Positions 4,281-59,428 of a DNA stretch of 64,000 bases are shown here, piece after piece. Position numbers and translations under genes: made by a program. Source of the DNA: Bacteroidales bacterium (lineage in GTDB: Bacteria; Bacteroidota; Bacteroidia; Bacteroidales; UBA3663); the NCBI GenBank assembly GCA_045617885.1, contig JAZLJN010000002.1, positions 10,184 to 74,183 of the forward strand, in the 5' to 3' direction. Under the pieces are notes generated by a model. The model was not told the origin of the DNA, ran no database searches, and worked only from the letters and a program-made list of their open reading frames with translations. The stretch's first letter is position 1. The number at the start of each line of letters is the position of its first letter.

Positions 4281-4383
4281 GGACCTTTTAGTGTTAGTTT
4301 TTTATTTACGGTGCAAATATACATAAAAAATCGAAACAGCGGACATGTTTTCTGCTTTTTTTTACTCTTTTACACAATATTTT

Positions 4384-4427
4384 AAAACAAAAAGCGCTCC
4401 AAAAGCCTTTTCGGGACTCTGGAGCGC
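4384..4427 (-). terminator. Intrinsic terminator downstream of asd
   Basis: Stem GCGCTCCA (4394-4401) pairs with TGGAGCGC (4420-4427). On the minus strand the hairpin is followed by TTTTTGTTTT. Confidence 0.6.
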
Positions 4428-4449
4428 ATGTATCTGTATAGCGGATAGC

Positions 4450-16814: not shown

Positions 16815-17540
16815 ATGGAAAATGGAAAACAAATAAAAGTGTTGACTTTGCAGTTCGATACAGAGATAGCGGCATGGGAGGTTCCGCTTTTTCGTGGAGC
16901 TGTATTATCGAGTATTGGAAAGGATGTTGACATATTATTTCATAATCATGCCGAGGATGAAAAATTTCGTTATTCTTACCCTTTGATCCAATACAAACGT
17001 TTAGGAGGAAAGGCTGCTATCGTTTGCGTGCAAGAGGGTGTGGATAGTATCGGACAGTTCCTTGTGGTTCAGGATTCAACTTTTGTCCTTGGAGACAGGA
17101 CTGTAACCCTTGCCATGCAGAGTGTACGCCCGCAGAATATTCTAATACAGACATGGCAGAGCGATTTTGCTTATCGTTTACAACACTGGTTGCCATTAAA
17201 TAGTAAGAACTATCAAGTATATCAGGAGACGGAATCTCTTTCGGCACGCATTTCTTTGCTTGAAGGAATATTGCGTGGCAATCTTCTCTCGATGTGCAAA
17301 GGACTTGGTATCCATCTGACAGAAGAACTGAAGGTTAGTATCAATTGGCTGTCTAATCCTCAATCAGTCAAGCACAAAGGAATTAGAGTTCTGTCTTTCG
17401 ATGTGAATTTCAGTACCAATTTGAGTATTCCCGATGGCGTAGGTATCGGAAAAAATGCGAGTATTGGTTTTGGAACGGTACGAAAAGGATTAGGAAAGGA
17501 TAATAAAAAACAAGAACATAATGAATCAAATAACGAATAG
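16815..17540 (+). CDS. cas6: CRISPR-associated endoribonuclease Cas6
   Basis: 241 aa. It has the N-terminal LFHNH...FRYSYPLIQYK motif and the C-terminal glycine-rich loop GVGIGKNASIGFGTV typical of Cas6 RAMPs. It is the first gene of the effector operon. Confidence 0.75.
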   Translation: MENGKQIKVLTLQFDTEIAAWEVPLFRGAVLSSIGKDVDILFHNHAEDEKFRYSYPLIQYKRLGGKAAIVCVQEGVDSIGQFLVVQDSTFVLGDRTVTLAMQSVRPQNILIQTWQSDFAYRLQHWLPLNSKNYQVYQETESLSARISLLEGILRGNLLSMCKGLGIHLTEELKVSINWLSNPQSVKHKGIRVLSFDVNFSTNLSIPDGVGIGKNASIGFGTVRKGLGKDNKKQEHNESNNE

Positions 17541-19026: not shown

Positions 19027-19032
19027 ATACAT

Positions 19033-19464
19033 ATGAAATATCCGTCTACTGAATTAAAACCAGAGTGGGTTTATGCTCCAATTACTCCAGATATAGTGGA
19101 ATGGTGTAAATCTTTTGGAGAGTTTTTATCACCTGCGTGCCTAACAGACTCAAAAAAACCTCTAACGACATCGCAATTACGCAGATTCTTTGGAGAAGTG
19201 AAAAGAATTAAGATGCAAAAAGTGATTCAAGGAGATGACGTCGCTATGTTGAATCCACAACTTGCATATGCGGTAGGTCGAGATAAAGATAACTTTGGCA
19301 AGAATAAAACAAGGATTGCTGAGTTTCAACAACAACTGAGCAAAGCTATCAGTGCGATTCGATTCGATGAACATTTGGCTCAAGATTACGATCATTTTAT
19401 ACAAATCTTCGAAGCTATTGTTGCATATCATAAATACTATGGTGGAAAAGAGAATACAAAATAA
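19033..19464 (+). CDS. csm2: Type III small subunit Csm2 (Cas11)
   Basis: 143 aa, helical, with LTTSQLRRFFGEVKRI, NPQLAYAVGR and FEAIVAYHKYYGG motifs. It sits between cas10 and csm3. Confidence 0.75.
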   Translation: MKYPSTELKPEWVYAPITPDIVEWCKSFGEFLSPACLTDSKKPLTTSQLRRFFGEVKRIKMQKVIQGDDVAMLNPQLAYAVGRDKDNFGKNKTRIAEFQQQLSKAISAIRFDEHLAQDYDHFIQIFEAIVAYHKYYGGKENTK

Positions 19465-19473
19465 TAATTGACT

Positions 19474-20112
19474 ATGGAAAGATTGATCAAAAAAATAAAG
19501 GTAAATACTACTCTTGAGTTACTTACAGGTCTTCATATTGGAGGAAGTACAGAAAATGTTGAGATTGGTGGCATAGATCGTCCAGTTATCAAAATAGCTG
19601 TACGAGATAATCAACCTTATATTCCAGGTAGTTCAATTAAAGGCAAGATACGTTGTCTTTTGGAACAAGTAAGAGGCGCCGTAGAGGTAGGTAATGATGA
19701 TTCCGTAAATGACTTATTTGGGTTCGCTCAAAAAGATCTTCCATCTAAACTCATTGTTCGCGATAGTTTCCTCTCTTCTGATTCTGTAAAACAATTCCAG
19801 AATTGTGATAATCTAGATATGCCTTTTACAGAAGGTAAATGGGAGAACACTATTGAACGCGTTAAGGGTGTGGCCAAGAATCCACGTTTGATAGAGCGAG
19901 TACCTGCTGGTGCAGTTTTTAATGTTGAGTTTATCATCAATGTATGGGATGATGAAAAGAACTCTGTAAGACTAATGAATATGTTGGAAGAAGGAATCTC
20001 ATTACTTGAAAATGATTATTTAGGCGGCAGCGGCTCAAGAGGATATGGCCAAGTTCGTTTTGGAGAGTTGCAGAAGACTGAACTCTCTGCAGAGAATAAC
20101 TGGAAAGCATAA
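19474..20112 (+). CDS. csm3: Csm3 (Cas7 backbone RAMP, crRNA-guided RNase subunit)
   Basis: LELLTGLHIGGSTENVEIGGIDRPVIK...PYIPGSSIKGKIRCLLE and C-terminal YLGGSGSRGYGQV. The ATG at 19474 is preferred over the TTG at 19468. Confidence 0.9.
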   Translation: MERLIKKIKVNTTLELLTGLHIGGSTENVEIGGIDRPVIKIAVRDNQPYIPGSSIKGKIRCLLEQVRGAVEVGNDDSVNDLFGFAQKDLPSKLIVRDSFLSSDSVKQFQNCDNLDMPFTEGKWENTIERVKGVAKNPRLIERVPAGAVFNVEFIINVWDDEKNSVRLMNMLEEGISLLENDYLGGSGSRGYGQVRFGELQKTELSAENNWKA

Positions 20113-20129
20113 CCATATAAGCAATTATT

Positions 20130-21137
20130 ATGGCAACACTGAATATATGTAAATTGCACTTCTCGTCACCGTTGCATATTGGTGATCAGAAGAACGATGA
20201 TTATGGCATAAGCCTGAAGACCATCTCTTCTGATACGATGTATGCAGCTATGACTGCGGTACTTGCAAAATCAGGTGTCGGCCTTCCTGATGATGGTAAT
20301 CTGGGATTTACAATCAGTAGCCTTTTCCCGTATTATCAAAAGTCATCAGATTCATCATCGGTCTTTTTCTTCCCACAACCTTTGCAGACAAGATTGCCGC
20401 AGCTGAAAGATCTTGGTGTAAGAAAAAAGGTAAAGAAAGTCAAATGGCTCGACACAGGTTATTTTGAAAAGGTGCTGAAAGGAGAACATCTTTTTGAAGA
20501 TTGCGACAGTACGGACATAAAATGCATACATGGTGAGTATCTTTCCGACCAGTTTGTTCCTAACGACTTCATCGGTAGTCAGGTTATTCAGCGAGTTACA
20601 TTACAATCAAGAGTTGGAGAGAAAGACGCTTTGCCTTATTATGTAGATAGAGTGTCTTTTAAGGATTATTCAGGTCTGTACTTCATTGTAGAGGGCGACA
20701 CAGCAATGTTAGATCAAGCATTGGCTTTATTGAGCCTTGAAGGTATAGGTACGGATCGAAACGTCGGTAATGGATTCTTTGACTATGAGATGACGACATT
20801 ATCATTGGATGTCCCTCAGAGATCAGAATATGCTGTATCATTATCGCTATTGATGCCAGAGTCAAAAGAAGAGTTCGAAAAACTGATCGCATCAGATAAG
20901 GTAGCCTATGATATTGAGCGACGAGGTGGGTGGATAACTACTTACCCATTTCAGCGATTGCGAAAGAATGCGATTTATGGATTCACTCCAGGAAGTGTGT
21001 TCTGCAAAGAATCGGACGGACTTCAATCTATTGGCCGCATCGTTGATCTTCGCCCCAATGTAGAATTTACGAGCGAGAAGCTCCACCCTATCTGGCGTTC
21101 TGGCAAGGCTTTATTACTACCTATTATCATTGAGTAA
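20130..21137 (+). CDS. csm4: Csm4 (Cas5-family RAMP)
   Basis: 335 aa with MATLNICKLHFSSPLHIGDQ and SDTMYAAM N-terminal motifs and GIGTDRNVGNGFF glycine-rich loops. Confidence 0.85.
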   Translation: MATLNICKLHFSSPLHIGDQKNDDYGISLKTISSDTMYAAMTAVLAKSGVGLPDDGNLGFTISSLFPYYQKSSDSSSVFFFPQPLQTRLPQLKDLGVRKKVKKVKWLDTGYFEKVLKGEHLFEDCDSTDIKCIHGEYLSDQFVPNDFIGSQVIQRVTLQSRVGEKDALPYYVDRVSFKDYSGLYFIVEGDTAMLDQALALLSLEGIGTDRNVGNGFFDYEMTTLSLDVPQRSEYAVSLSLLMPESKEEFEKLIASDKVAYDIERRGGWITTYPFQRLRKNAIYGFTPGSVFCKESDGLQSIGRIVDLRPNVEFTSEKLHPIWRSGKALLLPIIIE

Positions 21138-21139
21138 TT

Positions 21140-22876
21140 ATGGAAGTCAATAGAAAATACTACATACAGTTTACAGTAGTTACTCCACTTTGTGTTGGAG
21201 CTGGTAACGAAGCAGAATGGGTGAAATGTGCTGACTATGTAATTAAGGACAGGAAGGTTTATGTCCTTGACTTGCATCGTGTAGCAGATTCTGGGATAGA
21301 TATGTCTCAGTTAAGTATTCTTTTTGTCAACCAAGATCATGACGGTATCGTCAAACTTCTTGGCAACAAGATTAAGATTGTTTCTGCCAGCGTCTTCGAT
21401 CTTCCATGTGATACAGATAATAATATCAAGTCTTTTGAACGAAGTCAGCTTCATAATCTTCCTGTAGTTGCTGGCAGTTCTTTGAAGGGAGCAATACGTT
21501 CTGTTTTGTTTCAGTACTTACGTCAGGATGAAACAAAGAATGAATCAGTTTTCGGTACGATGAATGACGGTACGGATTTTATGCGATTCATAAAGGTCGG
21601 AGATATTGAAATGCCAAAGACGGAGTTATATAATTCCAAGATCTTCAATCTGCATACAGAAGATGGTTCTTGGCATGGCGGTTGGAAACATGCTTTGACT
21701 AATGGTACTAAAGACTATTATAGGTCAACAGGCTTTAATTCTCTTTATGAATGTGTTTCACCGAACAAGTCGGGAGTAGGAACAATCATGCTTAGCCCGT
21801 TGCTTTTTAAGAAAGTATTGGAACGTAGTAACACGATACCTTTTGCTGCCCCCAAACAGAAGATCCTTAATGATGATATAAAAACGCTGTTTTCTATTAT
21901 CAATCAGTTTACAAAGCAATATCTCGAAAAGGAGCGTGAATTCTTTGTTCAGTATCCTGCCGATCGGTCGGAACAGATTGTCGAAAGTATTGATCAGCTG
22001 ATGGCATCTATTCCAGCAGATAACTCTTCGTGTCTGCTGAAAATGTCTGCAGGTGTAGGATTCCATGCCATCACAGGTGACTGGATGCACGAATCTTATA
22101 CAGAAGGGATCTTTGATAGAAAAAGAAACAAAGACAATGATACGCTTCCAAAATCCAGAAAAATAGTAGAGACAAAAGATGGTCTCTCATTCATGGGTTT
22201 TGTAAGACTTTCTTCCGTTGACCAAGAGACATACGAAGAACATCTTGACCGAATTATTACTGAGTATAATAGTCGGATGCAAGACGTCCTCAATCAAAAG
22301 GATGCGAAAAAAGCAGCAGCAGAGGCTCAAAGAATTGCTCTTGTAGAAAAAGAGAGGCAGTATAATGTATTGCTAGCGGAGGCTCTTGCTGCAGAACAAT
22401 CGGAAGACTTCATCTTAGCGCTAGACAAAGCTCGTAAAGCTGCTGAATTGTTCCCAGTCAGGAAGGAACCTCAAGAACTCATCTCTCGATCAGAGACTAA
22501 GGCTGCAGAGCAAAAGTTGAGACAGGCTCAGGCTTCAGCAGAGGCGGCAATGGCCAAGATTCGCGAGGAGAAGGCTTCTGGAGGATTATCTGCTCTTTTG
22601 AATGAGAAGTATGAACAGGGTCCGAACGAAGGCAAGTATAAGGTTCTTACTTTTAAGGTCTGTCTGCAAAAGGTCTCTTCTTGGATGAAAGCTGCAGGAG
22701 TGACGACATTGCCAGAAGATCAAACTCCCGCGCTTATCGAAACTGTTGAACGTTTGATTGCCAATCCGGATAAGAAAGAATCCCGCGATATTGAGAATCG
22801 AAAGAGTAGTATCTGGAAGAAGATAGAGGAGCTGCTTTCTTGTCAGCAGGCGGATGAGTTGTATGCTAAGAAATAA
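21140..22876 (+). CDS. csm5: Csm5 (Cas7-like RAMP) fused to a C-terminal extension of about 215 aa (helical A/E/K-rich)
   Basis: 578 aa. The RAMP core carries TPLCVGAG and PVVAGSSLKGAIRSVLF and ends near ...LSFMGFVRL (about residue 360). Residues 361-578 (22220-22873) are coiled-coil-like plus a small terminal domain. Confidence 0.8.
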   Translation: MEVNRKYYIQFTVVTPLCVGAGNEAEWVKCADYVIKDRKVYVLDLHRVADSGIDMSQLSILFVNQDHDGIVKLLGNKIKIVSASVFDLPCDTDNNIKSFERSQLHNLPVVAGSSLKGAIRSVLFQYLRQDETKNESVFGTMNDGTDFMRFIKVGDIEMPKTELYNSKIFNLHTEDGSWHGGWKHALTNGTKDYYRSTGFNSLYECVSPNKSGVGTIMLSPLLFKKVLERSNTIPFAAPKQKILNDDIKTLFSIINQFTKQYLEKEREFFVQYPADRSEQIVESIDQLMASIPADNSSCLLKMSAGVGFHAITGDWMHESYTEGIFDRKRNKDNDTLPKSRKIVETKDGLSFMGFVRLSSVDQETYEEHLDRIITEYNSRMQDVLNQKDAKKAAAEAQRIALVEKERQYNVLLAEALAAEQSEDFILALDKARKAAELFPVRKEPQELISRSETKAAEQKLRQAQASAEAAMAKIREEKASGGLSALLNEKYEQGPNEGKYKVLTFKVCLQKVSSWMKAAGVTTLPEDQTPALIETVERLIANPDKKESRDIENRKSSIWKKIEELLSCQQADELYAKK

Positions 22877-22961: not shown

Positions 22962-23133
22962 TTTGTGAAATAAATGTATATGTATATTTGCCCACTCATT
23001 TTGATAATAAGAAAGTAGCATTTTGCTACAATTTCCCAAAATGATAGGTACATAATTAGTCTTATTAAGTTCTCGGATTTCTTTGAGATAGTCAATGTTT
23101 TGATTAGAAATCAATGTTTTATGTGTTTCGGCT
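22962..23133 (+). promoter_or_regulatory. Promoter and leader of CRISPR array 1
   Basis: TTTG at 22962-22965 and TATATTTG at 22983-22990. The last 119 nt (23015-23133) match the array-2 leader at 115 of 119 positions. The distance from the -7 box to the first repeat is the same as for array 2. Confidence 0.7.
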
Positions 23134-24198
23134 GTCCGAGACTATGTTCCATTAAAATAAGGATTAAGACTGATGTCAAGGAGGCTCTCGTACTCAAACC
23201 TCTTTTTGGTCCGAGACTATGTTCCATTAAAATAAGGATTAAGACAGAATTAAAGTGAAACGATGTGATAAGAAAGATGCACGTCCGAGACTATGTTCCA
23301 TTAAAATAAGGATTAAGACGGACGAAGTTCCTTCATAGCCTCTACTACAAGTAAGGTCCGAGACTATGTTCCATTAAAATAAGGATTAAGACGATTGGGG
23401 TGTAGATAACTGTTGTTTCCATAATGCGTCCGAGACTATGTTCCATTAAAATAAGGATTAAGACCGTGGCAAAACGTCTTTCTGCATCATGATAACGTTG
23501 TCCGAGACTATGTTCCATTAAAATAAGGATTAAGACCAGCAGTCGGAGCAACGCCCGACACAATAGCGTTTGCGTCCGAGACTATGTTCCATTAAAATAA
23601 GGATTAAGACATCACTGTGTAAGCAGAAACGAAGAAAGGAGCGATGTCGTCCGAGACCATGTTCCATTACAATAAGGATTAGGACATCTTTAACGAACTT
23701 TGTTGCAGCAGCTTTGTCAGTCCGAGACTATGTTCCATTACAATAAGGATTAAGACTAGCGCCAAAGACGCTTGAGCTGATAGACATGGCAGTCCGAGAC
23801 TATGTTCCATTACAATAAGGATTAAGACACAATAACAGCAATAAACATGAGCATTAAAGATTTCAGTCCGAGACTATGTTCCATTACAATAAGGATTAAG
23901 ACGTGGAAACAGCCCTTGCTGTTTGACTGACCTACAGCGTCCGAGACCATGTTCCATTACAATAAGGATTAAGACAACTTTGCTGTTGTATAATCTCGAC
24001 CTTCGATGCTGTTGCAAATGTCCGAGACCATGTTCCATTACAATAAGGATTAAGACCAGAAAACCAGAGTAAACACATTGCGACGATATTTCGTCCGAGA
24101 CCATGTTCCATTACAATAAGGATTAAGACAGAATAGTGACTGCTCGCATCTTCTTGTCCTTTAACTGGTTCATGTTCCATTAAACCAAAGATAATTCT
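23134..24198 (+). CRISPR. CRISPR array 1: 14 full 37-nt repeats plus one degenerate terminal repeat
   Basis: Repeat consensus is GTCCGAGAC[T/C]ATGTTCCATTA[A/C]AATAAGGATTAAGAC. Repeat starts are 23134, 23209, 23283, 23356, 23428, 23500, 23574, 23649, 23720, 23792, 23866, 23939, 24020 and 24093. Spacer lengths are 38, 37, 36, 35, 35, 37, 38, 34, 35, 37, 36, 44 and 36 nt. The decayed repeat at 24162-24198 keeps the core CATGTTCCATTAAA. The 3' end ATTAAGAC resembles the 8-nt crRNA tag of Cas6-processed repeats. Confidence 0.97.
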
Positions 24199-24213: not shown

Positions 24214-25200
24214 ATGGATTTAGTACTTAATACATTTGGGACATCTTTGAATAGAGATAACCAAGGCTTTGTCATCACCAATCAGGACGGAAGACAACGT
24301 ATTCCGGCCCAAGGTATCAGGAGCATTCAAATAGGTAAGGGGGCACAGATAACCAGTGATGCGGTGATGTTGGCTATCGACAATGAAATAGACATTGTTT
24401 TTACCGATCGCTCAGGTATGCCCAAGGGAAGAATCTGGAGTCCACAATATGGATCAATCTCCACTATCCGTAAGGGACAGTTGGCATTCACTATGTGCTC
24501 CGATGCATTAACTTGGATAAAGGAAATCTTAGTTCAAAAAATCTCAAATCAGCAAGCTTTGCTTTTGATGCTTCCTGAACCACAAGATCAATATGTATCT
24601 CTAAAGCAGCAGCATGCCATTGAGAAACTAGAGAATTTCCGGACAAAGATAAGTCAAATCAATGAACCCCAGTTGGTATGTGATGAGGCTTCAACACTAC
24701 GAGGTTTGGAGGGAATGGCATCGAAGTTATACTTTGAGACCATCAATTTATTTTTGCCAGAAGAATATCGTTATGAGGGTCGCTCCCAACATCCCGCAAT
24801 GGATGCTTTTAACGCCTTCCTGAATTATGGTTACGGCATACTGTATTCCAAGATTGAGGGAGAATTGATCAAGGCTGGGGTAGATCCCTACATCGGTATT
24901 TTGCATCGTGATGACTACAACCGCCCGGTACTTGTATTTGATGTGATTGAAATCTATCGTATCTGGGTGGATTATGTAGTATGTAATCTGATGCTACAGA
25001 AAGTAGTGACCGACGAGTTCTACTCCGTGCAGGAAGATGGATCATATTGGCTGGAGACACTGGGTAGAAGAGTATTGATTCAATCGCTTAATGACTATTT
25101 AGAGGAAATTGTCAAAGTTAAAGGGTTAAGCCGATCGCGTAATACACAGATACAACTGTATGCCCAGGATCTGGCACAGCGGTTCAAGAAATATCAATAG
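24214..25200 (+). CDS. cas1: CRISPR integrase Cas1
   Basis: 328 aa with the conserved block HPAMDAFNAFLNYGYGILYSKIEGELIKAGVDPYIGILHRDDYNRPVLVFDVIEIYR. Confidence 0.95.
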   Translation: MDLVLNTFGTSLNRDNQGFVITNQDGRQRIPAQGIRSIQIGKGAQITSDAVMLAIDNEIDIVFTDRSGMPKGRIWSPQYGSISTIRKGQLAFTMCSDALTWIKEILVQKISNQQALLLMLPEPQDQYVSLKQQHAIEKLENFRTKISQINEPQLVCDEASTLRGLEGMASKLYFETINLFLPEEYRYEGRSQHPAMDAFNAFLNYGYGILYSKIEGELIKAGVDPYIGILHRDDYNRPVLVFDVIEIYRIWVDYVVCNLMLQKVVTDEFYSVQEDGSYWLETLGRRVLIQSLNDYLEEIVKVKGLSRSRNTQIQLYAQDLAQRFKKYQ

Positions 25201-25256: not shown

Positions 25257-26288
25257 ATGTTATCAGCAGGAAGTAATATTCAGTCATTGACGGATGCTTT
25301 GAAACCTATCAGTGTGGAGCATCTGTATCAGAGCCTGGTGTCTCCAAAAGCAGATGTTGAGGCAAAAATCAGGCAATTGAGAATCGTCAGGCAAATCGAT
25401 GCCAAACTCTATGCGCGCAATAAGAAACTGCTGCCCTTCTTTGTGTGTGCTACGTTCAATCCTGCCATACGTCGCACAGAGAATTTTGCCTATACCTCTT
25501 ACTTTGTAGTCGATCTTGATAATCTGGCAGAGCGTCAGTTGGACCTACAGACTTTACGCAACTGGTTAGAAACGGATCCTCGTGTACTACTTTCTTTTAT
25601 ATCTCCCAGTGAAGATGGATTGAAAGTGTTGTTCCGACTCAAAGAGCGCTGCTATGATGCTGGGCTTTATAAGGTATTTTATCAGGAATTTGTACGCAGA
25701 TTCTCACAACAATATCATTTGGAGCAAGTCGTTGACAGCAAGACATGTGACGTATGCAGGGCTTGCTTTATAAGCATTGATACCAATGCATATTATAATC
25801 AGGATGCAGAACCCGTAGATATCAACGATTACTTGAAAGCAGATGATGCCACGGCTTTGTTTGATATGAAGCACGAGCAGGATAGAGCTAACAAAGAAGT
25901 GGATAAACTGCAGAAGGAGGAAAAAGCAGCTGGACCAGCAGAACCTGCTGATGATGAGCTGTCACATATCAAGGAATTGCTTCAGATGCAGCGCCAACGT
26001 ATGCCTCAGATACCAAGATTGCCTATTTATGTCCCTGAACGATTGGACCAGATTATGGATGGATTATGCTCATTCGTTGATGACCAGGGAATGAAGATAT
26101 ATGATATACAGAATATTCAATATGGTAAGAAGATACGGGGTAAATTGGGAAATCGGCTGGCGGAAGTAAATCTTTTCTATGGAAAAAAGGGATTCCGTAT
26201 TGTTCAGACGGTAAAAGGAATTCTTTCTCCTGAATTAAATGAGATATTGGCTGAATTGATACAGATATATCTACGGTTAAACACCTGA
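25257..26288 (+). CDS. Primase-polymerase (AEP/Prim-Pol, BT4734/VirE-N-like); CRISPR-associated Prim-Pol (CAPP)-like
   Basis: 343 aa encoded between cas1 and cas2. It has AEP motif I YFVVDLD (DLD at 25512-25520), a motif II-like SPSEDGLKVLF, and a motif III-like DVCRACFISIDTNAYYN. Confidence 0.65.
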   Translation: MLSAGSNIQSLTDALKPISVEHLYQSLVSPKADVEAKIRQLRIVRQIDAKLYARNKKLLPFFVCATFNPAIRRTENFAYTSYFVVDLDNLAERQLDLQTLRNWLETDPRVLLSFISPSEDGLKVLFRLKERCYDAGLYKVFYQEFVRRFSQQYHLEQVVDSKTCDVCRACFISIDTNAYYNQDAEPVDINDYLKADDATALFDMKHEQDRANKEVDKLQKEEKAAGPAEPADDELSHIKELLQMQRQRMPQIPRLPIYVPERLDQIMDGLCSFVDDQGMKIYDIQNIQYGKKIRGKLGNRLAEVNLFYGKKGFRIVQTVKGILSPELNEILAELIQIYLRLNT

Positions 26289-26293
26289 TCCCG

Positions 26294-26779
26294 ATGCCAC
26301 GCAAACCCAAACCACCGCTTTCTGCGGCAGAGATACTTGAAAAGATAAGAGCAGCAGGATTGTCTGATACGAATGTAATACGAGATAATACGCTGCCTGG
26401 TGCTTCTCAGTTAGAGAGCCTTGATGTCAGACTCCAGCACATTCTTAGTCTGACAACCAACAGACAATCTAAACATAATGGTATGTTATTCTTTGTAATG
26501 TATGATATAGAAAGCAATAAGGTACGTAACCTGGTGGCAAAATACTTGATCCGCCAGGGATGCTTTCGGATTCAGCATTCTATTTATCTGGCCGATATGC
26601 CATGTGACAAATGTGACCAAATTAAGGAAGATCTGGCTCAGGTGCAAGCTGCCTATGATAATCATGATAGTATTCTGGTGGTACCCATTTCTACAGACTA
26701 CCTCCGGTCTATGCGTGTCATCGGACGTGCTTTAGATGTAGAGGTAATCATGCATTCCCAGAACACATTGTTCTTTTAA
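26294..26779 (+). CDS. cas2: Cas2 with an N-terminal extension of about 60 aa
   Basis: 161 aa. The Cas2 core begins at MLFFVMYDIESNKVRNLVAKYLIRQGCFRIQHSIYLAD. Residues 1-62 (MPRKPKPPLSAAEILEKIRAAGL...) are extra. Confidence 0.85.
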   Translation: MPRKPKPPLSAAEILEKIRAAGLSDTNVIRDNTLPGASQLESLDVRLQHILSLTTNRQSKHNGMLFFVMYDIESNKVRNLVAKYLIRQGCFRIQHSIYLADMPCDKCDQIKEDLAQVQAAYDNHDSILVVPISTDYLRSMRVIGRALDVEVIMHSQNTLFF

Positions 26780-26792
26780 TAGCTTTCAGTTT

Positions 26793-28310
26793 ATGTCACG
26801 CACCGATATCAAAAAACTTCAGCAACAAGGGCGTCTTGAAGAGGCTCTTGAGCTGGCAATGAACCAATATACACTGAATCCTAATGCTCTATGGGCAAGG
26901 ACCGATTTGGCATGGGTTTATGACGCGATGTGTAAGAAATCTGCAGCCGAAGGTAAAGTTGAGACGTTTGAAAATGCTTTCCGTCCTATTGCCAATTTAG
27001 GGCTGCTTACGACTGATCAAATGCTCAGCGAAACGCTCTGCTGGAGGTTCCGCTCACTTATGGCTACTTGTAGCGCAAAAATGGAAGCTTTGGATAAACC
27101 TGCGTTTGCTCAGCGGGTATGGGATATGGTTGGCTTGCTGGGAGCCTCACATCCATCAGAAGCCTACTCCGTTTTATGCAAAGCTTTTTATCATTTGCGG
27201 GACAACTGGATGGGCTTCATAGATTTCATGGATTGGTGGGGATGGCAGAACTTCAGACCAGAGGATTACCAGCAAGAGAAGCTGCCTAATGGGAAAACAA
27301 TGCCTATGTCATTGGTCGAAGGCTGTCATATCGCCTATGCAAAACTATTGTTACAGATGGGTGATAAAGATAGAATGTCAGCTTTCTTGCCTCGCCTTGA
27401 GTCTCTTGGAAATTCATATCCAAATATGCTTTATCCAGGTTACTATACAGGTAAGCTTCTGGTCGCAATAGGAGGAGATAAGAAAGCAATGCTTCAGTCT
27501 GTTTTACCATTTGTCAGGCAGAAGTCCGGAGAGTTTTGGGCTTGGCAACTTTTGGCTGAGATGGAGCAAGATGACGAATCTTTTTATATTGCCTGCCTGC
27601 TTAGAGCCGTTAACTGCAAGACAAAAGATGCCTTTTTGGTCAAAATCCTTTATTTGTTGACTAACCTGTCGCTTGCAAAACAAGATTTTGTGGCTGCCCG
27701 AACCTTTTTGTCCCGATATGTGTCATCAAAAATGGATTCTCAAAGCCGGATGCCTTCAGAAGTGTACCATTGGATGAATGAGGCTTGGTATAAAGATAGT
27801 AAAGTTCGGCAAACATCAAGTATTCTCCAACTGGACTATATGCAGATAACAGATGAACTTTTATTTGCTGATATGCCAGAGCACCCCTTATGTATAACTC
27901 ATATAATCAGTGAGGCAAGAATAGCAATGGTTGTGTATGGATATCAGAAAAGCGGACGCATCAGACTGCCTAAATCGATGAAACAAATAAATGTCGGAAC
28001 TTGTCTGCTGGCTCGCATAAAGGAGCCGGTGCCATCAAGCAATAACCTTACAACCTATTCTTTAAGGCAAGTAAGATGGAATGAATTGCCACCTACTACA
28101 TTTTTACGAACAATCGAAGGGAAGATTACTTCCAACCAAAGTAAAACTGCATTCTTCGTTAAATTTGGAAAAGAGTTCGCTTTCTTGCCAAAGTATTTGT
28201 ATAAAAACAAAGAGCTCAATGTGGATGAAAAAATCACTGCACAAATAGTTTATGACTATCAAAAGAACAAAGCATGCTGGTCCTGGCGGTGTATTTCAAT
28301 CAAATTTTAA
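26793..28310 (+). CDS. Uncharacterised 505-aa protein in the adaptation operon. The N-terminal region is TPR-like and helical; the C-terminal region is beta-rich and possibly OB/S1-like.
   Basis: It starts 13 nt after the cas2 stop on the same strand. The N-terminus reads GRLEEALELAMNQYTLNPNALWARTDLAWVYDAM and is helical-repeat-like. The C-terminus reads RIAMVVYGYQKSGRIRLP and GKITSNQSKTAFFVKFGKEFAFLPKYL. I recognised no catalytic motif. Confidence 0.5.
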   Translation: MSRTDIKKLQQQGRLEEALELAMNQYTLNPNALWARTDLAWVYDAMCKKSAAEGKVETFENAFRPIANLGLLTTDQMLSETLCWRFRSLMATCSAKMEALDKPAFAQRVWDMVGLLGASHPSEAYSVLCKAFYHLRDNWMGFIDFMDWWGWQNFRPEDYQQEKLPNGKTMPMSLVEGCHIAYAKLLLQMGDKDRMSAFLPRLESLGNSYPNMLYPGYYTGKLLVAIGGDKKAMLQSVLPFVRQKSGEFWAWQLLAEMEQDDESFYIACLLRAVNCKTKDAFLVKILYLLTNLSLAKQDFVAARTFLSRYVSSKMDSQSRMPSEVYHWMNEAWYKDSKVRQTSSILQLDYMQITDELLFADMPEHPLCITHIISEARIAMVVYGYQKSGRIRLPKSMKQINVGTCLLARIKEPVPSSNNLTTYSLRQVRWNELPPTTFLRTIEGKITSNQSKTAFFVKFGKEFAFLPKYLYKNKELNVDEKITAQIVYDYQKNKACWSWRCISIKF

Positions 28311-28380: not shown

Positions 28381-28555
28381 TTTGGTGAATGAAAAAAGAA
28401 TATGTATCTTTGTCCCACCTAATAATCATTGGTAATGTAGCATTTTGCTACAATTTCCCAAAATGATAGGTACATAATTAGTCTTATTTAGTTCTCGGAT
28501 TTCTTTGAGATAGTCAATGTTTTGATTAGAAATCAGAGTTTTATGTATTTCGGCT
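28381..28555 (+). promoter_or_regulatory. Promoter and leader of CRISPR array 2 (a duplicate of the array-1 unit)
   Basis: TTTG at 28381-28384 and TATCTTTG at 28405-28412. The 119-nt conserved leader spans 28437-28555. Confidence 0.7.
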
Positions 28556-29396
28556 GTCCGAGACCATGTTCCATTAAAATAAGGATTAAGACACGTTGTA
28601 AGCATTGTACGAAGTTCACTTTTCTTGTGTCCGAGACCATGTTCCATTAAAATAAGGATTAAGACCATTGCGGTTGAACCCAACGAGGATTCCAGTAATT
28701 GTCCGAGACCATGTTCCATTAAAATAAGGATTAAGACGTTCTTCTCGATGATGGCGAGGCTGCTCTCGGTGGTCCGAGACCATGTTCCATTAAAATAAGG
28801 ATTAAGACTCCATATAGTATGGAGAACCTCCTTGTTCTCCTTGTAAAGTCGTCCGAGACCATGTTCCATTAAAATAAGGATTAAGACCTGTAAGTTCTTC
28901 TACGGGCGTGTTATTATGATTCTCGTCCGAGACCATGTTCCATTAAAATAAGGATTAAGACCCTGTCTTGTTTTTTCGCGTGGCTGGGAACTGAGAAGTT
29001 GTCCGAGACCATGTTCCATTAAAATAAGGATTAAGACTTACATCCTTTGTTCTGGAAGAAATACTCTGTGTGCTCGTCCGAGACCATGTTCCATTAAAAT
29101 AAGGATTAAGACTTTTTGTGCTAGAACTTTACTGCCAAACTTGCGGTTGGAGTCCGAGACCATGTTCCATTACAATAAGGATTAAGACCGCCTGATCTGT
29201 TACGATTTCGCGAATGTTATCATGTCCGAGACCATGTTCTATTAAAATAAGGATTAAGACACTATTGGTGAAAGTACCCAACTTAACCATTGTACCGTCC
29301 GAGACCATGTTCCATTACAATAAGGATTAAGACGCTTGCCCTTGTTCCATGCACGATAGCAGCGGTCGGTCTCGGACCAACACTCGGTCCGAGACC
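28556..29396 (+). CRISPR. CRISPR array 2: 11 full 37-nt repeats plus a truncated terminal repeat fragment
   Basis: It uses the same repeat family. Starts are 28556, 28629, 28701, 28772, 28851, 28925, 29001, 29076, 29152, 29224 and 29297. Spacer lengths are 36, 35, 34, 42, 37, 39, 38, 39, 35 and 36 nt. The fragment GTCCGAGACC at 29387-29396 follows 53 nt of decayed sequence. Confidence 0.97.
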
Positions 29397-29484: not shown

Positions 29485-29516
29485 ATTTGGAATAGAAGTG
29501 TAAATACTTTATATTT
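29485..29516 (+). promoter_or_regulatory. Promoter of the helicase-csx1-csx1-csx20-like accessory operon
   Basis: TTTG at 29485-29488 and TATATTTG at 29509-29516, with a 20-nt spacer. It lies 67 nt upstream of the ATG at 29583. An 8-bp hairpin (ATGCATCG/CGATGCAT) sits in the 5' UTR. Confidence 0.5.
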
Positions 29517-29582
29517 GCGCCTCTATGCATCGTGCATCTCCCGATGCATATTTGAGATACACTTTGCCAATACAGAAAAATC

Positions 29583-31007
29583 ATGGATAACGAAATACAG
29601 CTGACGCATTCCCAAGACCGCGCATTCAAGATGATGATTGGTTTTGTGGAGAATCCGAACCAACGAATCTTCATCCTGAAAGGATATGCTGGTACAGGCA
29701 AGACTACACTGATGAAATGCTTGGTTAACGAGTTGATCTGCCAAAGTAAAGAAGTGAGACTACTTGCCTCTACAGGACGTGCTGCCAAGATTCTTAGCAA
29801 TGCCACAGGGATGGAGGCACACACCATACACAGCCAGGTCTATACTTTCAATGGTTTGAACCAAGACTTGGATAAACTCACAGAGGAACAAGGGAAGACA
29901 GGCTTAATGGCAGGAGAGCAGTTACTACTGGATTTCTCAATGGCTGAAGCTGAAGATGACGAGGAGATAATATTCCTGATAGACGAGTCCTCTATGGTGT
30001 CAGACCAAGAGCAGAAGGTGGTCACCCAAGCCAGATTCGGAAGTGGCAGGGTACTGAAAGACTTGATTGATTGCTATCCTGCGGGAAAGTTTATCTTTGT
30101 AGGGGACCCATGCCAGCTGCCTCCTATTACTCAACCATTCTCGCCTGCTTTATCTGCTGAATATTTTAAGTCGTCTTACGAAGAGGAGGTGCTGTGTGCA
30201 GAATTGACCGAAATCATGCGGCAGCAAAAGGATAATGACCTTATACAGTCTGCTCAGCGTATGCGTCAGTTGTATGCCAATCCTCCTCAAGTAAAGTGGG
30301 CAAAATTCCCTCTAAAAGGTTATAGAAACATACATATCCTATCTAGTCAAACTGAACTGCTTAGCCTTTATATTGATGACATTAAGCAAAATGGATTTAA
30401 CTCCGCTACCCTTTTAGGGTTCACTAACAAACAATGTAATGATCTGACACGGCTGATTCGTCCATCTCTTGGTATCGTTTCCATGACCATCTCGGTGGGC
30501 GACCTATTGCTGGTTACCCAAAATAATTACATCTCTGGTCTGATGAATGGCGATCTGGTAGTGGTCAAGGCGATTGGCGCGATGGAACAGCGAGCTGGAT
30601 TACACTTCCAGACAGTAAGCGTCGAGGAGTTGTTCACTAAAAAAGTATATGAACAGCTGCTCGTTCTGGAGATACTCTATGCCAACGAAACCAATCTGAC
30701 GCAGGAACAGCAGCGAGAATTAATGTTAGAATTCTATTTCAGGATGAAAGCTAATGGCATCAAGCAAAAGAGCAAGGCTTTTAATCAGATGATGATAAAA
30801 GACCCATACTTGAATGCTCTTCGTACGGTTTATGGTTTTGCTTTGACCTGCCACAAGTCTCAAGGTGGCGAGTGGGACAAAATCTACCTTGACATCCCCC
30901 GTTCATTCCCTTTACAGGCCAAGCCATACGTATATCAGTGGATGTACACCGCCATGACTAGAGCCAAACAAGACTTGTTTGTAGTTAATGATTTTTGGAT
31001 ATATTAA
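29583..31007 (+). CDS. RecD/TraA-like SF1 DNA helicase (AAA_30 + SH3-like + UvrD_C-type)
   Basis: 474 aa with Walker A GYAGTGKTT, Walker B FLIDESSMV, GDPCQLPPI, an SH3-like segment VGDLLLVTQNNYISGLMNGDLVVV, and motifs V/VI ALTCHKSQGGEW and YTAMTRAK. Confidence 0.85.
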   Translation: MDNEIQLTHSQDRAFKMMIGFVENPNQRIFILKGYAGTGKTTLMKCLVNELICQSKEVRLLASTGRAAKILSNATGMEAHTIHSQVYTFNGLNQDLDKLTEEQGKTGLMAGEQLLLDFSMAEAEDDEEIIFLIDESSMVSDQEQKVVTQARFGSGRVLKDLIDCYPAGKFIFVGDPCQLPPITQPFSPALSAEYFKSSYEEEVLCAELTEIMRQQKDNDLIQSAQRMRQLYANPPQVKWAKFPLKGYRNIHILSSQTELLSLYIDDIKQNGFNSATLLGFTNKQCNDLTRLIRPSLGIVSMTISVGDLLLVTQNNYISGLMNGDLVVVKAIGAMEQRAGLHFQTVSVEELFTKKVYEQLLVLEILYANETNLTQEQQRELMLEFYFRMKANGIKQKSKAFNQMMIKDPYLNALRTVYGFALTCHKSQGGEWDKIYLDIPRSFPLQAKPYVYQWMYTAMTRAKQDLFVVNDFWIY

Positions 31008-32266
31008 TAATTGGGAACACTGTGAGTAAGGTTTTAGTTTCGTTTTTGGGAACAGGTTCTAATAGCAGAGGATTAGGTGTGAGAGAATATCATAAGGCTC
31101 GCTACCGATTTGAAAATGGAGTAGAGATTGACACCTCTTTTGTTGCAGATGCATTGTTCCGTTTTTATGACATTGACAAGTTAATTCTGCTGGGTACTCC
31201 CAAATCCATGTGGGAACAGGTATATGATGTATTTTGCGACAACAGGAACATACCCAAAAACGAGGACTATTGGCTGGAATTAGCTACCTCTTGTGATAAA
31301 GCCAATGCCAACAGTCCTTTGCATATTCCGAATAAGGAATTATTGGAATCTGCCATAGGAGCAGATTCTCATGTTGTATTAATTCATTATGGCCTCAATG
31401 AACAAGAATTGCAGAATAATGCATCGATAATTCTTGGGATTGAAGATTTTTTGAACACAGGTGATGAGCTATATTTGGACATTACACATGCGTTCCGTTC
31501 GTTGCCATTATATCTAATGAATTTGATTGTTTATCTTCAGAATGTCAGTGCAAAAAAGGTTAAGCTAGCCAATATATCGTATGGCATGCTTGACGTAAAC
31601 AAAGAACTTGGATATGCACCTGTGATTAATCTCTCCGGTATAGCAGAGATCAATGAATGGATAGTTGGCGCATATACATTCCGTCAGTTCGGCAATGGTT
31701 ATAAAATAGCAGAATTGATGAAAAGAAGAGGTGAAAAAAATATGTCGAATAAACTCACCAAATTTTCAGACATGCTTAACCTTAATCATTTGGATGGCAT
31801 CCGGAAGCAGACGCAAGAACTGTCAGCAGTTAAGAATGATAGCCATGGCGCTATTGCAGATCATATTATTCCTGGAGTAATCAATGGCTTTATAGATTAC
31901 TTCCCTAACAACATGCGTCAATCAACCTTTCAACGAAGATTGGCTCAGTGGCATTATAATCATCAGAACTACTCGTCGGCATTTATTGCGCTGGTGGAAG
32001 CAATTATAACTTACGTGTGTGAAGAGCTAGAATTTGACTGGGATCTGATGGAAAAACGAGAACTAGCTAAACGAGTATTACGCCGTCAAGAACCTTCGCT
32101 GATGAGAAACGTGAGGGAGTTTAGCACTGTAAGCAGCTGGTTTTCTAAAGTAAATAGGATCAGAATCAGTGTAGCACATTCTGTTACAAATTCCAAGAAC
32201 AATAGTGAAATGATTTCTTTACTGGATGAAGCCCTGATCTGTTTAAGAATGATAATCAAAGGATAA
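30995..32266 (+). CDS. csx1: CARF-HEPN protein (Csx1/Csm6 family, DxTHG-type), paralog A
   Basis: CARF motifs VLVSFLGTG and LYLDITHAFRSLP. The C-terminal HEPN-like motif is NRIRISVAH (32156-32179, Rx4-6H). The start may instead be the GTG at 31022 (VSKVLVSFLG). Confidence 0.75.
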   Translation: MDILIIGNTVSKVLVSFLGTGSNSRGLGVREYHKARYRFENGVEIDTSFVADALFRFYDIDKLILLGTPKSMWEQVYDVFCDNRNIPKNEDYWLELATSCDKANANSPLHIPNKELLESAIGADSHVVLIHYGLNEQELQNNASIILGIEDFLNTGDELYLDITHAFRSLPLYLMNLIVYLQNVSAKKVKLANISYGMLDVNKELGYAPVINLSGIAEINEWIVGAYTFRQFGNGYKIAELMKRRGEKNMSNKLTKFSDMLNLNHLDGIRKQTQELSAVKNDSHGAIADHIIPGVINGFIDYFPNNMRQSTFQRRLAQWHYNHQNYSSAFIALVEAIITYVCEELEFDWDLMEKRELAKRVLRRQEPSLMRNVREFSTVSSWFSKVNRIRISVAHSVTNSKNNSEMISLLDEALICLRMIIKG

Positions 32267-32281
32267 TATTATAGATTAGAT

Positions 32282-33583
32282 ATGTCACGCAACGTCTTTA
32301 TTTCATTCCTTGGTGAAGGTTTTTACTATAAAACCAAGTACAACCAGCAGACTGCAAATCTTAAAGAAACACGTTTTATCCAATGTGCGACACTCGAGTA
32401 CCTTGAAGCGTCAAAATGGGAACCGGACTCGAAGGCCTACATCCTTCTCACTCAAGTAGCTCATGATAATAACTGGATTGATAATGAAACGAGAAATATC
32501 AACGGTGTAGACCGAGCTTATAATGGTCTGCATAAGGAACTACAGGAATGGGGGGCTCCTTTTGATATCGAACCAATAAATATTCCTAATGGTAATGATA
32601 TGAAGGAGATGTTTTCGATATTCACTACGCTTTTCTCATATCTTCAGGAGGGTGATAAGTTGTATTTAGATATGACTCATGGTTTTAGATATCTGCCTAT
32701 GTTTTTACTTGTTCTGGGTAATTATGCCCAGTTCTTAAAGAATGTAGAGGTAAGAAGTATTACATATGGTAATGTCTTTTCTCCAACTAAAGAAATTTTG
32801 GATCTAATGCCGCTATGCAATCTGCAAAATTGGACAATTGGTGCTGCTGATTTCGTGAGGAACGGTAATGTATCAGAGTTGGTGCGATTATCGGATAAAG
32901 AGATGATTCCAATTATTAAACAAAGTAGTAATAGGGATGAAAACACGATAAAACTGAAGGATTTCGCTCGGAAACTGGATAAGGTAATAGAAGAGATTAA
33001 AATGTGCAGATGCAAAGATGTTATTGAAGCAAAAAATCTTAAGGCTCTCAGACTTATAGCGGTCGATCTGGACATGAGTCAAAATCTACAAGCGTTTGAA
33101 CCTATTCAGGTTAGGATTCTTGATTCTTTAAGAAAATTCTCTTCCGAGCCATCGCTTTTCAATGGATTAGCTGCTGCTGAATGGTGTATGTGTCATGGAC
33201 TATTCCAACAGTCTATTTCATATCTTGAAGAGACAATCGTTTCATTTTTCTGTAAAAAATACAATGTTCCTATTTATAATACAGAAATGCGAACCTTAAT
33301 CAGTAGTTGCTTTGGTTTTGTTGCATACAATACTCCTGAACAAAACTGGAGAGTATCCAAAAATACAGAGGAACGCGAAGCCAATCTCTCTCTCGCTAGG
33401 ATAATTGTAAAGAATCTAGATGAGAAACTTGCTGAAAAATACTGCAATATGGCTGATATCCGGAATGATATCAATCATGCGGGCATGAGAGATAATAGCC
33501 AATCACCGCAAGCTATAAAAAAAGGGATTGCCGCTTCTATAGATTATTTTACTCGTTATTTTGATACCTGGAATGTTAATTAA
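32282..33583 (+). CDS. csx1: CARF-HEPN protein (Csx1/Csm6 family, DxTHG-type), paralog B
   Basis: CARF motifs VFISFLGEG and LYLDMTHGFRYLP. It has a canonical HEPN motif RNDINH (33461-33478). Confidence 0.8.
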   Translation: MSRNVFISFLGEGFYYKTKYNQQTANLKETRFIQCATLEYLEASKWEPDSKAYILLTQVAHDNNWIDNETRNINGVDRAYNGLHKELQEWGAPFDIEPINIPNGNDMKEMFSIFTTLFSYLQEGDKLYLDMTHGFRYLPMFLLVLGNYAQFLKNVEVRSITYGNVFSPTKEILDLMPLCNLQNWTIGAADFVRNGNVSELVRLSDKEMIPIIKQSSNRDENTIKLKDFARKLDKVIEEIKMCRCKDVIEAKNLKALRLIAVDLDMSQNLQAFEPIQVRILDSLRKFSSEPSLFNGLAAAEWCMCHGLFQQSISYLEETIVSFFCKKYNVPIYNTEMRTLISSCFGFVAYNTPEQNWRVSKNTEEREANLSLARIIVKNLDEKLAEKYCNMADIRNDINHAGMRDNSQSPQAIKKGIAASIDYFTRYFDTWNVN

Positions 33584-33929
33584 TCTTACCAATCATCCAA
33601 CAGACACATGGACTGAGCTACAACTACATGAGGCGTGCAAATACGGAGAGATTGTAGATTTACCTTTTCCTGACGTTTCGGACAAAGCGACCCATGAAGA
33701 TGTAAAAGATTTAGTCAAGCAGTTATTTGATAAGATAGTCAAACTTTCTTCAAATAAAGCATGTACAGTTCATGTCATGGGAGAGATGACTTTTACCTAT
33801 GCCATGGTCAATATGCTGAAGGCTCACGGCTATAAGTGTGTGGCTTCTACATCGAAACGAATAGTTGAAATGTTGCCGGATGATTCGAAGAATGTGAGAT
33901 TTGAATTCTGCCAGTTCAGAGAATATTAA
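33573..33929 (+). CDS. Small CRISPR-linked protein, possibly Csx20 family (minimal Rossmann/CARF-like)
   Basis: About 118 aa from the ATG at 33573 (MLINLTNHPTDTWTELQLHEA...). It overlaps the stop of csx1 paralog B and is the last gene of the operon. The family assignment is from memory of the LNLT.H..(T/S)..Q N-terminal signature. Confidence 0.45.
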   Translation: MLINLTNHPTDTWTELQLHEACKYGEIVDLPFPDVSDKATHEDVKDLVKQLFDKIVKLSSNKACTVHVMGEMTFTYAMVNMLKAHGYKCVASTSKRIVEMLPDDSKNVRFEFCQFREY

Positions 33930-33963
33930 ACGCAAAATATCCAAGTCTCTATGAATTGTATTG

Positions 33964-34017
33964 CCAATCCCGCTGGCATAGATTTGAAAATTCTCAATTC
34001 TATGCCAGCGGGATTGG
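33964..34017 (+). terminator. Long perfect hairpin at the right edge of the island; likely the operon terminator
   Basis: The 19-bp stem CCAATCCCGCTGGCATAGA (33964-33982) pairs with TCTATGCCAGCGGGATTGG (33999-34017) around a 16-nt loop. There is no clean T-run. Confidence 0.5.
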
Positions 34018-34023
34018 TGTATA

Positions 34024-34348
34024 TTTACGAGTCGTGAAATGGACGCCAACGGTCTTGGCGTGGATTTAAAGGTTGTGAAATGGACGCCAAGAGTCTTGGC
34101 ACGCATTTACGAGTCGTGAAATGGACGCCAACAAGTCTTGGCGTGCAATCCAAGACCTCGGAACGGTTGTCTGATGACCTTGGCGCACAATCCTAGGCCT
34201 CCGGACATTTGATATACGGTTTTGGCAGACAATCCTAGGCCTCGGGACCTTTGTCAGATTCCCTTGGCGTGCAATCCTACGTCTCTGGACCTTCGTCTAA
34301 TGCCCTTGGCAGACAATCCTAACACTCCGGAGGATATTCTCTATCTGG
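34024..34348. repeat. Degenerate tandem repeat block with a period of about 42 bp (3 A-type plus 5 B-type units)
   Basis: A units read TTTACGAGTCGTGAAATGGACGCCAA..TCTTGGCGTG, each with a GCCAAG/CTTGGC hairpin. B units read CCTTGGCG(T/C)(G/A)CAATCCTAGGCCTC(C/G)GGAC.... The block lies between the convergent csx20-like and queA genes. Confidence 0.8.
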
Positions 34349-59397: not shown

Positions 59398-59428
59398 ATT
59401 CCTCATTGACAATTGAGCCTCTTGGAGG

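Follow-up and report, generated by a model that had tools for sequence, protein, structure and literature searches.

According to Zabrady et al. (2021; PMC8211822), CRISPR-associated Prim-Pols of the CAPP_B class are almost confined to type III operons of Bacteroidetes. In yeast two-hybrid assays with Dysgonamonadaceae proteins, the Cas1 of such an operon (DbCas1) contacts its RecD-like helicase (DbRecD), and Prim-Pols of the CAPP_A class occur as Prim-Pol-helicase and Prim-Pol-TPR fusions (PMC8211822). Here we analyse a helicase of this kind in a 64,000-nt stretch of DNA from a Bacteroidales bacterium of the UBA3663 lineage (GenBank assembly GCA_045617885.1, contig JAZLJN010000002.1, positions 10,184 to 74,183 of the forward strand; hereafter "the window"), in which it is the first gene of a four-gene unit within a complete type III-A locus.

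The window locus has much in common with the DbRecD operon: both are Bacteroidota type III loci that encode Cas1, a Prim-Pol of the VirE_N/BT4734 type and Cas2, together with a helicase of similar size. A Dysgonamonadaceae locus in our census (L043) has the canonical gene order and a helicase 47% identical to that of the window. In contrast to the DbRecD operon, the window helicase does not lie beside cas1, but heads a Csx1-Csx1-Csx20 unit behind a second array and a promoter of its own. The CAPP_A fusions find a parallel in the window, where the helicase and a protein with TPR and OB-type domains (TPR-OB) are encoded by separate genes of the same locus. The association of this helicase with CRISPR is already published (Zabrady et al., 2021), and the window offers a rearranged version of a locus type that was known before; neither the helicase nor the Prim-Pol is mentioned in two surveys of type III systems (PMC11229360; PMC12669027). 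New here are the finding that the helicase is optional in two directions, its co-variation with Cas1 and Prim-Pol, and its position as sister to the helicase-TBP proteins of TOTE systems.

The helicase is a bare superfamily 1B (SF1B) core of 474 aa, with two RecA-like domains and 1B and 2B inserts, that ends just past motif VI. The initial annotation had quoted a full set of SF1 motifs, and all five are present: GYAGTGKTT (aa 34–42), DESSM (134–138), GDPCQLPPI (174–182), HKSQGGEW (424–431) and YTAMTRAK (455–462). Walker A, Walker B and SF1 motifs III, V and VI are intact, and the motif core residues are invariant across 28 homologues. Pfam matches were AAA_30, AAA_19, PIF1 and UvrD_C_2, with a weak match to SH3_13 (E = 0.0017); the PADLOC profile PDC-M16A (PDLC04475) matched with E = 4.1e-119 over profile positions 9–485 of 721. 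The description of the protein as RecD-like holds at the superfamily level, but does not extend to the RecD families themselves, whose equivalog cut-offs it misses widely (RecD2, TIGR01448, 113.8 bits versus 500; RecD, TIGR01447, 77.3 versus 310).

An AlphaFold2 model of the helicase, built from the 28-sequence alignment (pLDDT 82.6, pTM 0.81), gave as top Foldseek matches T4 Dda (3upu; E = 9e-23, TM 0.64), DSH9 (Deep-Sea Helicase 9; 8jx6) and RecD2 (3gpl; E = 2e-17). Structures of Bacteroides Pif1 (5FTB, 5FTC, 5FHF) matched much more weakly (E about 1e-11, TM about 0.4), and sequence searches agree that Dda and RecD2 are the nearest helicase structures. The model thus places the protein among SF1B DNA helicases of the Dda/RecD2 structural class, from which 5′-to-3′ polarity on single-stranded DNA would be expected. 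With T4 Dda and Deinococcus RecD2, both 5′-to-3′ SF1B enzymes, it shares all SF1 motifs and a β-rich 2B/SH3-like insert, although identity is merely 17–21% and the N-terminal domain of RecD2 is absent. Neither Pfam nor the model revealed a CARF, SAVED or other sensor domain, or a nuclease domain. Other class 1 CRISPR systems have likewise recruited helicases, namely the type IV-D RecD, the type IV-A CasDinG and Cas3; the window helicase differs from Cas3 in lacking a nuclease domain, and its host system differs in type from IV-D and IV-A. We rejected membership in the type IV-D RecD family, because its model was matched only weakly and over no more than the N-terminal half (E = 1e-25).

A protein search with the helicase returned 5392 homologues (E ≤ 1e-10), many of them generically named (for example, “ATP-dependent DNA helicase”); only three exceeded 70% identity, and hundreds grouped at 55–62%. 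We scanned one genome per species for relatives using the 28-sequence alignment, as a single helicase sequence used as query had retrieved none, and at least 582 species matched. Our census comprises the best 80 of these at least 582 species loci, with identities of 40–61% and essentially all from Bacteroidota; their 10-kb flanks were annotated by tblastn with the window proteins and with representatives from other loci, and by a k-mer array finder. Within these flanks 76 of the 80 helicase loci were CRISPR-linked, 73 by a cas or CARF gene and three by an array only, and three of the four unlinked loci were short contigs with little flank. By the comparison of neighbourhoods that the initial annotation had proposed, then, related loci do have the helicase, and it hardly ever occurs away from CRISPR.

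The surroundings of the helicase are also recurrent in their details. In 45 of 70 loci the gene immediately upstream encodes a Csx20 domain, alone or as a CARF-HEPN fusion. Of the 68 loci evaluable on the downstream side, 33 have Cas1 as the next gene and 8 have Csx20. Arrays within 700 nt were seen downstream in eight loci and upstream in two. The commonest order was Csx20 - helicase - Cas1 - Prim-Pol - Cas2, and in B. ovatus and others the whole locus reads cas6 - cas10 - csm2-5 - Card1 - Csx1/Csx20 - helicase - Cas1 - Prim-Pol - Cas2 - array. Each inspected neighbourhood of the 55–88% identical homologues was a type III locus. Upstream of the 88%-identical homologue (L001) are a degenerate CRISPR repeat and the same promoter as in the window, and this homologue leads a unit with a Card1-like gene, Csx20, a gene of 600 aa and a WYL gene; an 85%-identical homologue lies directly 3′ of csm5. 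In the window about 2.8 kb separates cas2 from the helicase downstream, and the TPR-OB gene and array 2 stand between the helicase and cas1. On viral contigs we found only distant relatives (≤34% identity), and the clade of short helicases to which the window protein belongs was not seen phage-borne. We conclude that the helicase is a dedicated CRISPR-associated gene, whose clade occurs almost only in Bacteroidota type III loci that carry a CAPP_B Prim-Pol.

The block CARF - Csx20 - helicase - Cas1 - Prim-Pol - Cas2 also occurs beside another effector module, which lacks Csm2-5 and whose large RAMP-fusion proteins measure about 469 and 761 aa, in L003, L019, L022, L026, L027, L051, L063 and others. 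As the block is attached both to Csm and to RAMP-fusion modules, the accessory and adaptation genes shuffle as a block between type III subtypes.

We then approached the association from the other side, using metagenome contigs anchored on the Prim-Pol, which formed 40 clusters at 90% identity, 27 of them with at least 2 kb upstream of cas1. Among these 27 CAPP_B loci the helicase lay directly upstream of cas1 in 13 and anywhere within 10 kb in 15; in the remaining loci Csx20 or a CARF-HEPN-Csx20 fusion often abuts cas1. Conversely, 31 helicase loci had flanks of 8 kb or more on each side and were scored for features within 10 kb; 25 of them contained a Csx20 domain. Because about half of the CAPP_B modules lack the helicase, and about half of the helicase loci lack cas1 within 10 kb, we conclude that the helicase is an optional cassette at the junction of the signalling and adaptation genes, optional in both directions.

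Co-variation, calculated as the Pearson r of pairwise identities across non-redundant loci, a mirror-tree measure confounded by shared ancestry and protein length, ties the helicase to Prim-Pol (0.56) and Cas1 (0.49) and to Csx20 (0.35–0.56), but not to the Csm complex (Csm3, 0.10; Csm4, 0.15). The control pairs gave 0.74 for Cas1 and Prim-Pol and 0.89 for Csm3 and Csm4. The helicase is found with HD-containing and HD-less Cas10 alike, and the effector modules that accompany it are of two unrelated kinds. It moves with the ring nuclease and the adaptation block, not with the effector complex.

On balance we favour the reading that the helicase is an adaptation-side enzyme, docked to Cas1, which opens invader DNA for prespacer synthesis by the Prim-Pol. 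Among the roles put forward in the initial annotation, this one is the best supported, given the two-hybrid contact between Cas1 and RecD (PMC8211822), the frequency of Cas1 as downstream neighbour and the co-variation with Cas1 and Prim-Pol. The recurrence of the Prim-Pol with both a helicase and a TPR protein, in the CAPP_A fusions and in the window, also suggests a shared job in adaptation. Tethered to Cas1, the helicase would translocate on invader single-stranded DNA, 5′ to 3′ if it behaves as its structural class does, and would thereby expose template for a Prim-Pol that has no helicase of its own. The Prim-Pol would prime on this template and copy it, and the duplex products may then be captured by Cas1-Cas2 as prespacers.

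Several observations weigh against this role. The only experimental datum, the two-hybrid contact, was obtained with a single distant orthologue (PMC8211822), and the confounding of the correlations has been noted above. The adaptation module does not depend on the helicase, as the CAPP_B modules without it make plain. Around the helicase, in the 31 well-flanked loci, cas1 was present in 16, as against a CARF effector in 27 and an effector complex in 29. In the window and about ten other loci the helicase is interleaved with Csx1 and Csx20 genes and is not beside cas1.

These same observations lend themselves to a role in the interference or signalling phase, in which the helicase might push RNA polymerase or replisomes aside, resolve the R-loop at the target, recycle Csm, or make DNA accessible to host nucleases. 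Such a role would explain co-expression with effectors activated by cyclic oligoadenylate (cA4) in a locus that has neither an HD domain nor a Card1/Can2 DNase. It would fit the preponderance of CARF effectors and effector complexes over cas1, and the absence of the helicase from half of the CAPP_B modules. In the window, as in the two relatives closest to it, the helicase either leads a unit of CARF effectors or ring nuclease or directly follows csm5, and it stands between Csx1 and Csx20 in L011, L032, L033, L052, L057, L058, L061, L065, L081 and L089. Nevertheless, we consider an interference-phase role, the main alternative to adaptation, rather unlikely: the protein is a bare core devoid of any sensor domain, its lack of co-variation with Csm3 and Csm4 contrasts with that seen for Cas1 and Prim-Pol, it is indifferent to the HD domain of Cas10 and to the kind of effector module, and its sole recorded physical contact is with Cas1 (PMC8211822).

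The PDC-M16A match of the helicase has a counterpart in the TPR-OB protein, which matches PADLOC PDC-M16B at full length (E = 4.7e-107, residues 1–503 versus profile 1–500 of 501) and in Pfam comprises TPR, DUF7017 and S1CSD-TOTE-2. Longer paralogues of the helicase, 33–35% identical to it, occur in L091 (690 aa) and L128 (675 aa); these carry C-terminal tandem TBP-TOTE domains (PF22721, about residues 595–687), and M16B follows immediately. The window helicase, which ends at residue 474, has no PF22721/TBP-TOTE match in Pfam. Pairs of helicase-TBP and M16B are found in CRISPR loci, and IMG/VR contigs that have no cas genes within 10 kb carry them as well. In a neighbour-joining tree the short, CRISPR-linked helicases were monophyletic (99/100 bootstraps) and sister to the long helicase-TBP forms, the two grouping together in 87/100 bootstraps. 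Judged by the tree and the profile matches, the short helicase shares descent with the helicase-TBP proteins of TOTE/PDC-M16, as a sister clade that lacks the TBP domain. The window locus thus resembles TOTE/PDC-M16 in having an M16A-homologous helicase core and a TPR-DUF7017-S1/CSD partner in the same locus; it differs in the missing TBP-TOTE domains, in a partner that is non-adjacent and missing from most related loci, and in its CRISPR context in place of a stand-alone pair. We found no literature on “PDC-M16”.

Two complete TOTE-type pairs lie inside type III loci, in L091 (4594–6666, − strand, and 3056–4591, − strand) and in L128 (1609–3636 and 3633–5117). The adaptation genes of L091 are the closest to those of the window (Cas1 72%, Prim-Pol 61% and Cas2 70% identity). 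Among the short-form loci, about 7 of the 80 keep M16B, always against cas1 or cas2; it is directly against one or the other in L026, L032, L045, L049, L050 and L078. The TPR-OB protein of the window is a candidate adaptation-associated factor.

This kinship suggests a further reading, in which the short helicase and the TPR-OB protein are an exapted TOTE module that bridges the two arms of type III immunity: expressed along with the cA4 effectors and brought in by Cas1, the module would convert invader DNA exposed during interference into template for the Prim-Pol. We regard this as unlikely, but were it true, type III systems would gain an interference-coupled, “primed-like” route of spacer acquisition.

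The kinship could also mean that the helicase and the TPR-OB protein are a degenerate, self-standing TOTE/PDC-M16 conflict system, independent of CRISPR and merely housed in a defence island. The strong M16A match and full-length M16B match, the long paralogues with tandem TBP-TOTE domains immediately followed by M16B, and the pairs on IMG/VR contigs away from cas genes all speak for such a system. We nonetheless find it quite improbable. The short clade is a monophyletic group without the TBP domain, M16B is kept in few short-form loci and there sits against cas1 or cas2 and not against the helicase, and almost all of the census loci are CRISPR-linked, with gene junctions that overlap or nearly abut. 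In the window itself, the helicase and M16B belong to separate transcription units with an array between them.

That the helicase is a passenger, as the initial annotation had allowed, or a housekeeping gene, placed by chance beside a CRISPR locus, as its thousands of generically named homologues and the housekeeping gene queA just downstream on the opposite strand might suggest, is extremely improbable and was set aside, being essentially refuted by the CRISPR linkage in the census and the uniformly type III neighbourhoods of the 55–88% homologues, and disfavoured by a Pif1 match far weaker than that to Dda.

We next consider the unit that the helicase leads. Scans of the window for σ70 promoters and intrinsic terminators gave counts like those of shuffled sequence (16 versus 16.9 and 3 versus 3.6), so we used a Bacteroidetes-specific promoter pattern. 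The pattern TTTG-N19–21-TAnnTTTG had 14 matches in the window where 0.43 were expected, all of them intergenic, and one is the TTTG-type promoter that had been noted after array 2. There was no match inside the four-gene block, nor any between 29517 and 35708, and the best-conserved intergenic stretch in L001 is this same promoter motif. At the other end of the unit stands a 24-bp hairpin with a perfect stem of 20 bp and 4 further pairs (−45.7 kcal/mol, z = −8.8); its stability was equalled by 0 of 200 shuffles. The promoter-to-hairpin arrangement is consistent with a separate operon, from which we infer a single transcript.

The four tightly packed genes had all been identified correctly, as the profile matches show, and their junctions had been described as two overlaps and one gap. 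The 15-nt gap between csx1a and csx1b (32267–32281) and the 11-nt overlap between csx1b and csx20 (33573–33583) stand. The overlap between the helicase and csx1a (30995–31007) requires a TTG start and is doubtful by homology: 11 csx1a homologues align only from residue 8–12 of the TTG-start reading frame, so the start is probably the GTG at 31022, and the overlap is therefore probably a 14-nt gap.

Both CARF-HEPN proteins of the unit have the sequence features of effector RNases, as initially proposed. Csx1a scores 164 bits against TIGR02221 (cut-off 76) and matches PADLOC CARF2--CARF_HEPN at full length (E = 4e-122); its DITHA motif (aa 162–166) and HEPN R-x4-H motif (RISVAH, aa 390–395) are intact. 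Csx1b, at 87.6 bits, is also above the TIGR02221 cut-off, and matches PADLOC CARF_HEPN(_CSX20) at full length (E = 1e-98), with DMTHG (aa 130–134) and HEPN RNDINH (aa 394–399) intact. Both carry the DxTHG domain (TIGR02549). These matches identify two diverged Csx1 CARF-HEPN paralogues, predicted to be cA4-activated RNases. The protein encoded by csx20 matches PADLOC Csx20 (PDLC01397; E = 7e-37, residues 5–122 versus profile 1–114 of 114) and scores 39.3 bits against NCBIfam NF040559, under the cut-off of 70, which marks it as a diverged member of its family. A search of PDB sequences gave one marginal match for Csx1a (8y75, E = 3.5e-4) and none usable for Csx1b or Csx20, so that none of the three has a solved-structure match under E = 1e-4.

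Biochemical work on the Csx20 family has established it as a ring nuclease specific for cA4 (bioRxiv 10.1101/2024.09.24.614671), and the window Csx20 is predicted to be one too. It would accordingly be an off-switch for cA4 rather than an effector, the company in which it had first been placed. The suggestion that this unit carries most of the non-RNA-cleavage immune output also does not stand, as the enzymatic output of the unit is RNA cleavage. The initial annotation was right that Cas10 lacks the HD domain, and the protein retains GGDD. By family membership, the Csm complex on target RNA would trigger synthesis of cA4 by this HD-less, GGDD-intact Cas10; cA4 would activate the Csx1a and Csx1b RNases, and Csx20 would degrade cA4 and so reset the system. 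The unit resembles the known modules of Csx1/Csm6 and ring nuclease in cA4 type III systems, with CARF DxTHG and HEPN R-x4-H motifs in both Csx1 proteins, and the placement of csx20 after the csx1 genes parallels known CARF_HEPN_CSX20 fusions. It departs from these modules in having two diverged Csx1 proteins and no Card1/Can2 DNase. We recognised no DNase in the window locus, neither an HD domain nor Card1/Can2, whereas most related loci have a Card1/Can2-like CARF nuclease before Csx1. In the window csx1a, the second Csx1, occupies the position that Card1/Can2 holds in related loci, for example L005, L008 and L023.

The remainder of the locus is a type III-A core with two arrays and an adaptation unit (table). 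Cas10 scores 311.9 bits against TIGR02578 (cut-off 170), with GGDD at aa 305–308; it has no Pfam HD match and begins at the Palm1 motif GDLSGIQ (aa 16–22), whereas its B. ovatus relatives have 845 aa and a faint HD match. Profile searches placed Csm2, Csm3 and Csm4 above the model cut-offs and matched Csm5 weakly.

Table. Features of the type III-A locus, in coordinates of the window
Feature	Position	Strand	Remarks
Type III-A locus, complete	cas6 to helicase/Csx1/Csx20 unit	+	Profile matches
cas6	16815-17540	+	PADLOC/profile match; promoter pattern match upstream
cas10	17521-19026	+	501 aa; HD-less, GGDD intact
csm2, csm3, csm4, long csm5	up to 22876	+	Effector genes; whole set from cas6, 16815-22876
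Csm5-like RAMP gene (the long csm5)	21140-22876	+	578 aa
Leader copy before array 1	23012-23170		159 nt, duplicated
Array 1	about 23134-24129		14 repeats
cas1	24214-25200	+	PADLOC Cas1b, E = 3e-99
CAPP_B-type Prim-Pol (BT4734/VirE_N type)	25257-26288	+	PADLOC PrimPol, E = 4e-24; Pfam BT4734-like_N
cas2	26294-26779	+	161 aa; PADLOC Cas2, E = 2e-15
TPR-OB gene	26793-28310	+	505 aa; PADLOC PDC-M16B; last of the cas1-CAPP-cas2 unit
Array 2 promoter match	28381-28412
Array 2 leader	28434-28555		Duplicated 159-nt segment, 28434-28592
Array 2	28556-29333	+	11 repeats of 37 nt; directly upstream of the helicase unit
Degenerate repeat remnant	about 29387		GTCCGAGACC...; 3′ of array 2
Helicase/Csx1/Csx20 unit	29485-33929	+	Four open reading frames
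Bacteroidetes-type promoter	29486-29517	+	TTTG-N20-TATATTTG; 66 nt before the helicase ATG
Helicase	29583-31007	+	474 aa
csx1a	31022 (GTG, homology-favoured) or 30995 (TTG, longest ORF) to 32266	+
csx1b	32282-33583	+	433 aa
csx20	33573 (ATG) or 33561 (TTG) to 33929	+
Terminal hairpin	33963-34018	+	33 nt past the csx20 stop; likely terminator/operon boundary
Tandem 41-42-nt units	34023-34321		e.g. ...GTGAAATGGACGCCAA...GTCTTGGCG...; again at 59428-59572

Some further features of the locus are of interest in their own right. The Csm5-like RAMP protein exceeds the Csm5 of B. ovatus (367 aa) by about 200 aa, and Csm5 models match only its N-terminal ~130 residues. In Cas2 the Cas2 domain starts at residue 64, leaving an N-terminal extension of 63 aa; relatives are of comparable length (159–160 aa). 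The leader before both arrays is duplicated, its two copies being 96% identical, and the array-2 copy alone is preceded by an exact match to the Bacteroidetes promoter, which falls outside the duplication. The repeats of array 1 come in two variants, grouped in blocks, that differ at position 10 (T or C) and position 22 (A or C); those of array 2 are mostly the C/A variant. Just past the csx20 hairpin lie tandem units of 41–42 nt that recur 25 kb away and resemble intergenic repeats of the REP type.

How type III systems gain spacers, and what CRISPR-associated Prim-Pols require, is poorly understood. The window locus is a further, rearranged example and establishes no new principle; the value of the analysis lies in the census, the picture of an optional cassette and the link to TOTE. 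Hundreds of Bacteroidota species, among them common human-gut Bacteroides such as B. ovatus, keep this helicase in their type III loci, and ideas of its function have so far rested on a single yeast two-hybrid result. By mapping where the helicase occurs and with which partners, the census defines genetic tests in tractable gut bacteria, and it flags the TPR-OB protein as a second candidate adaptation factor.

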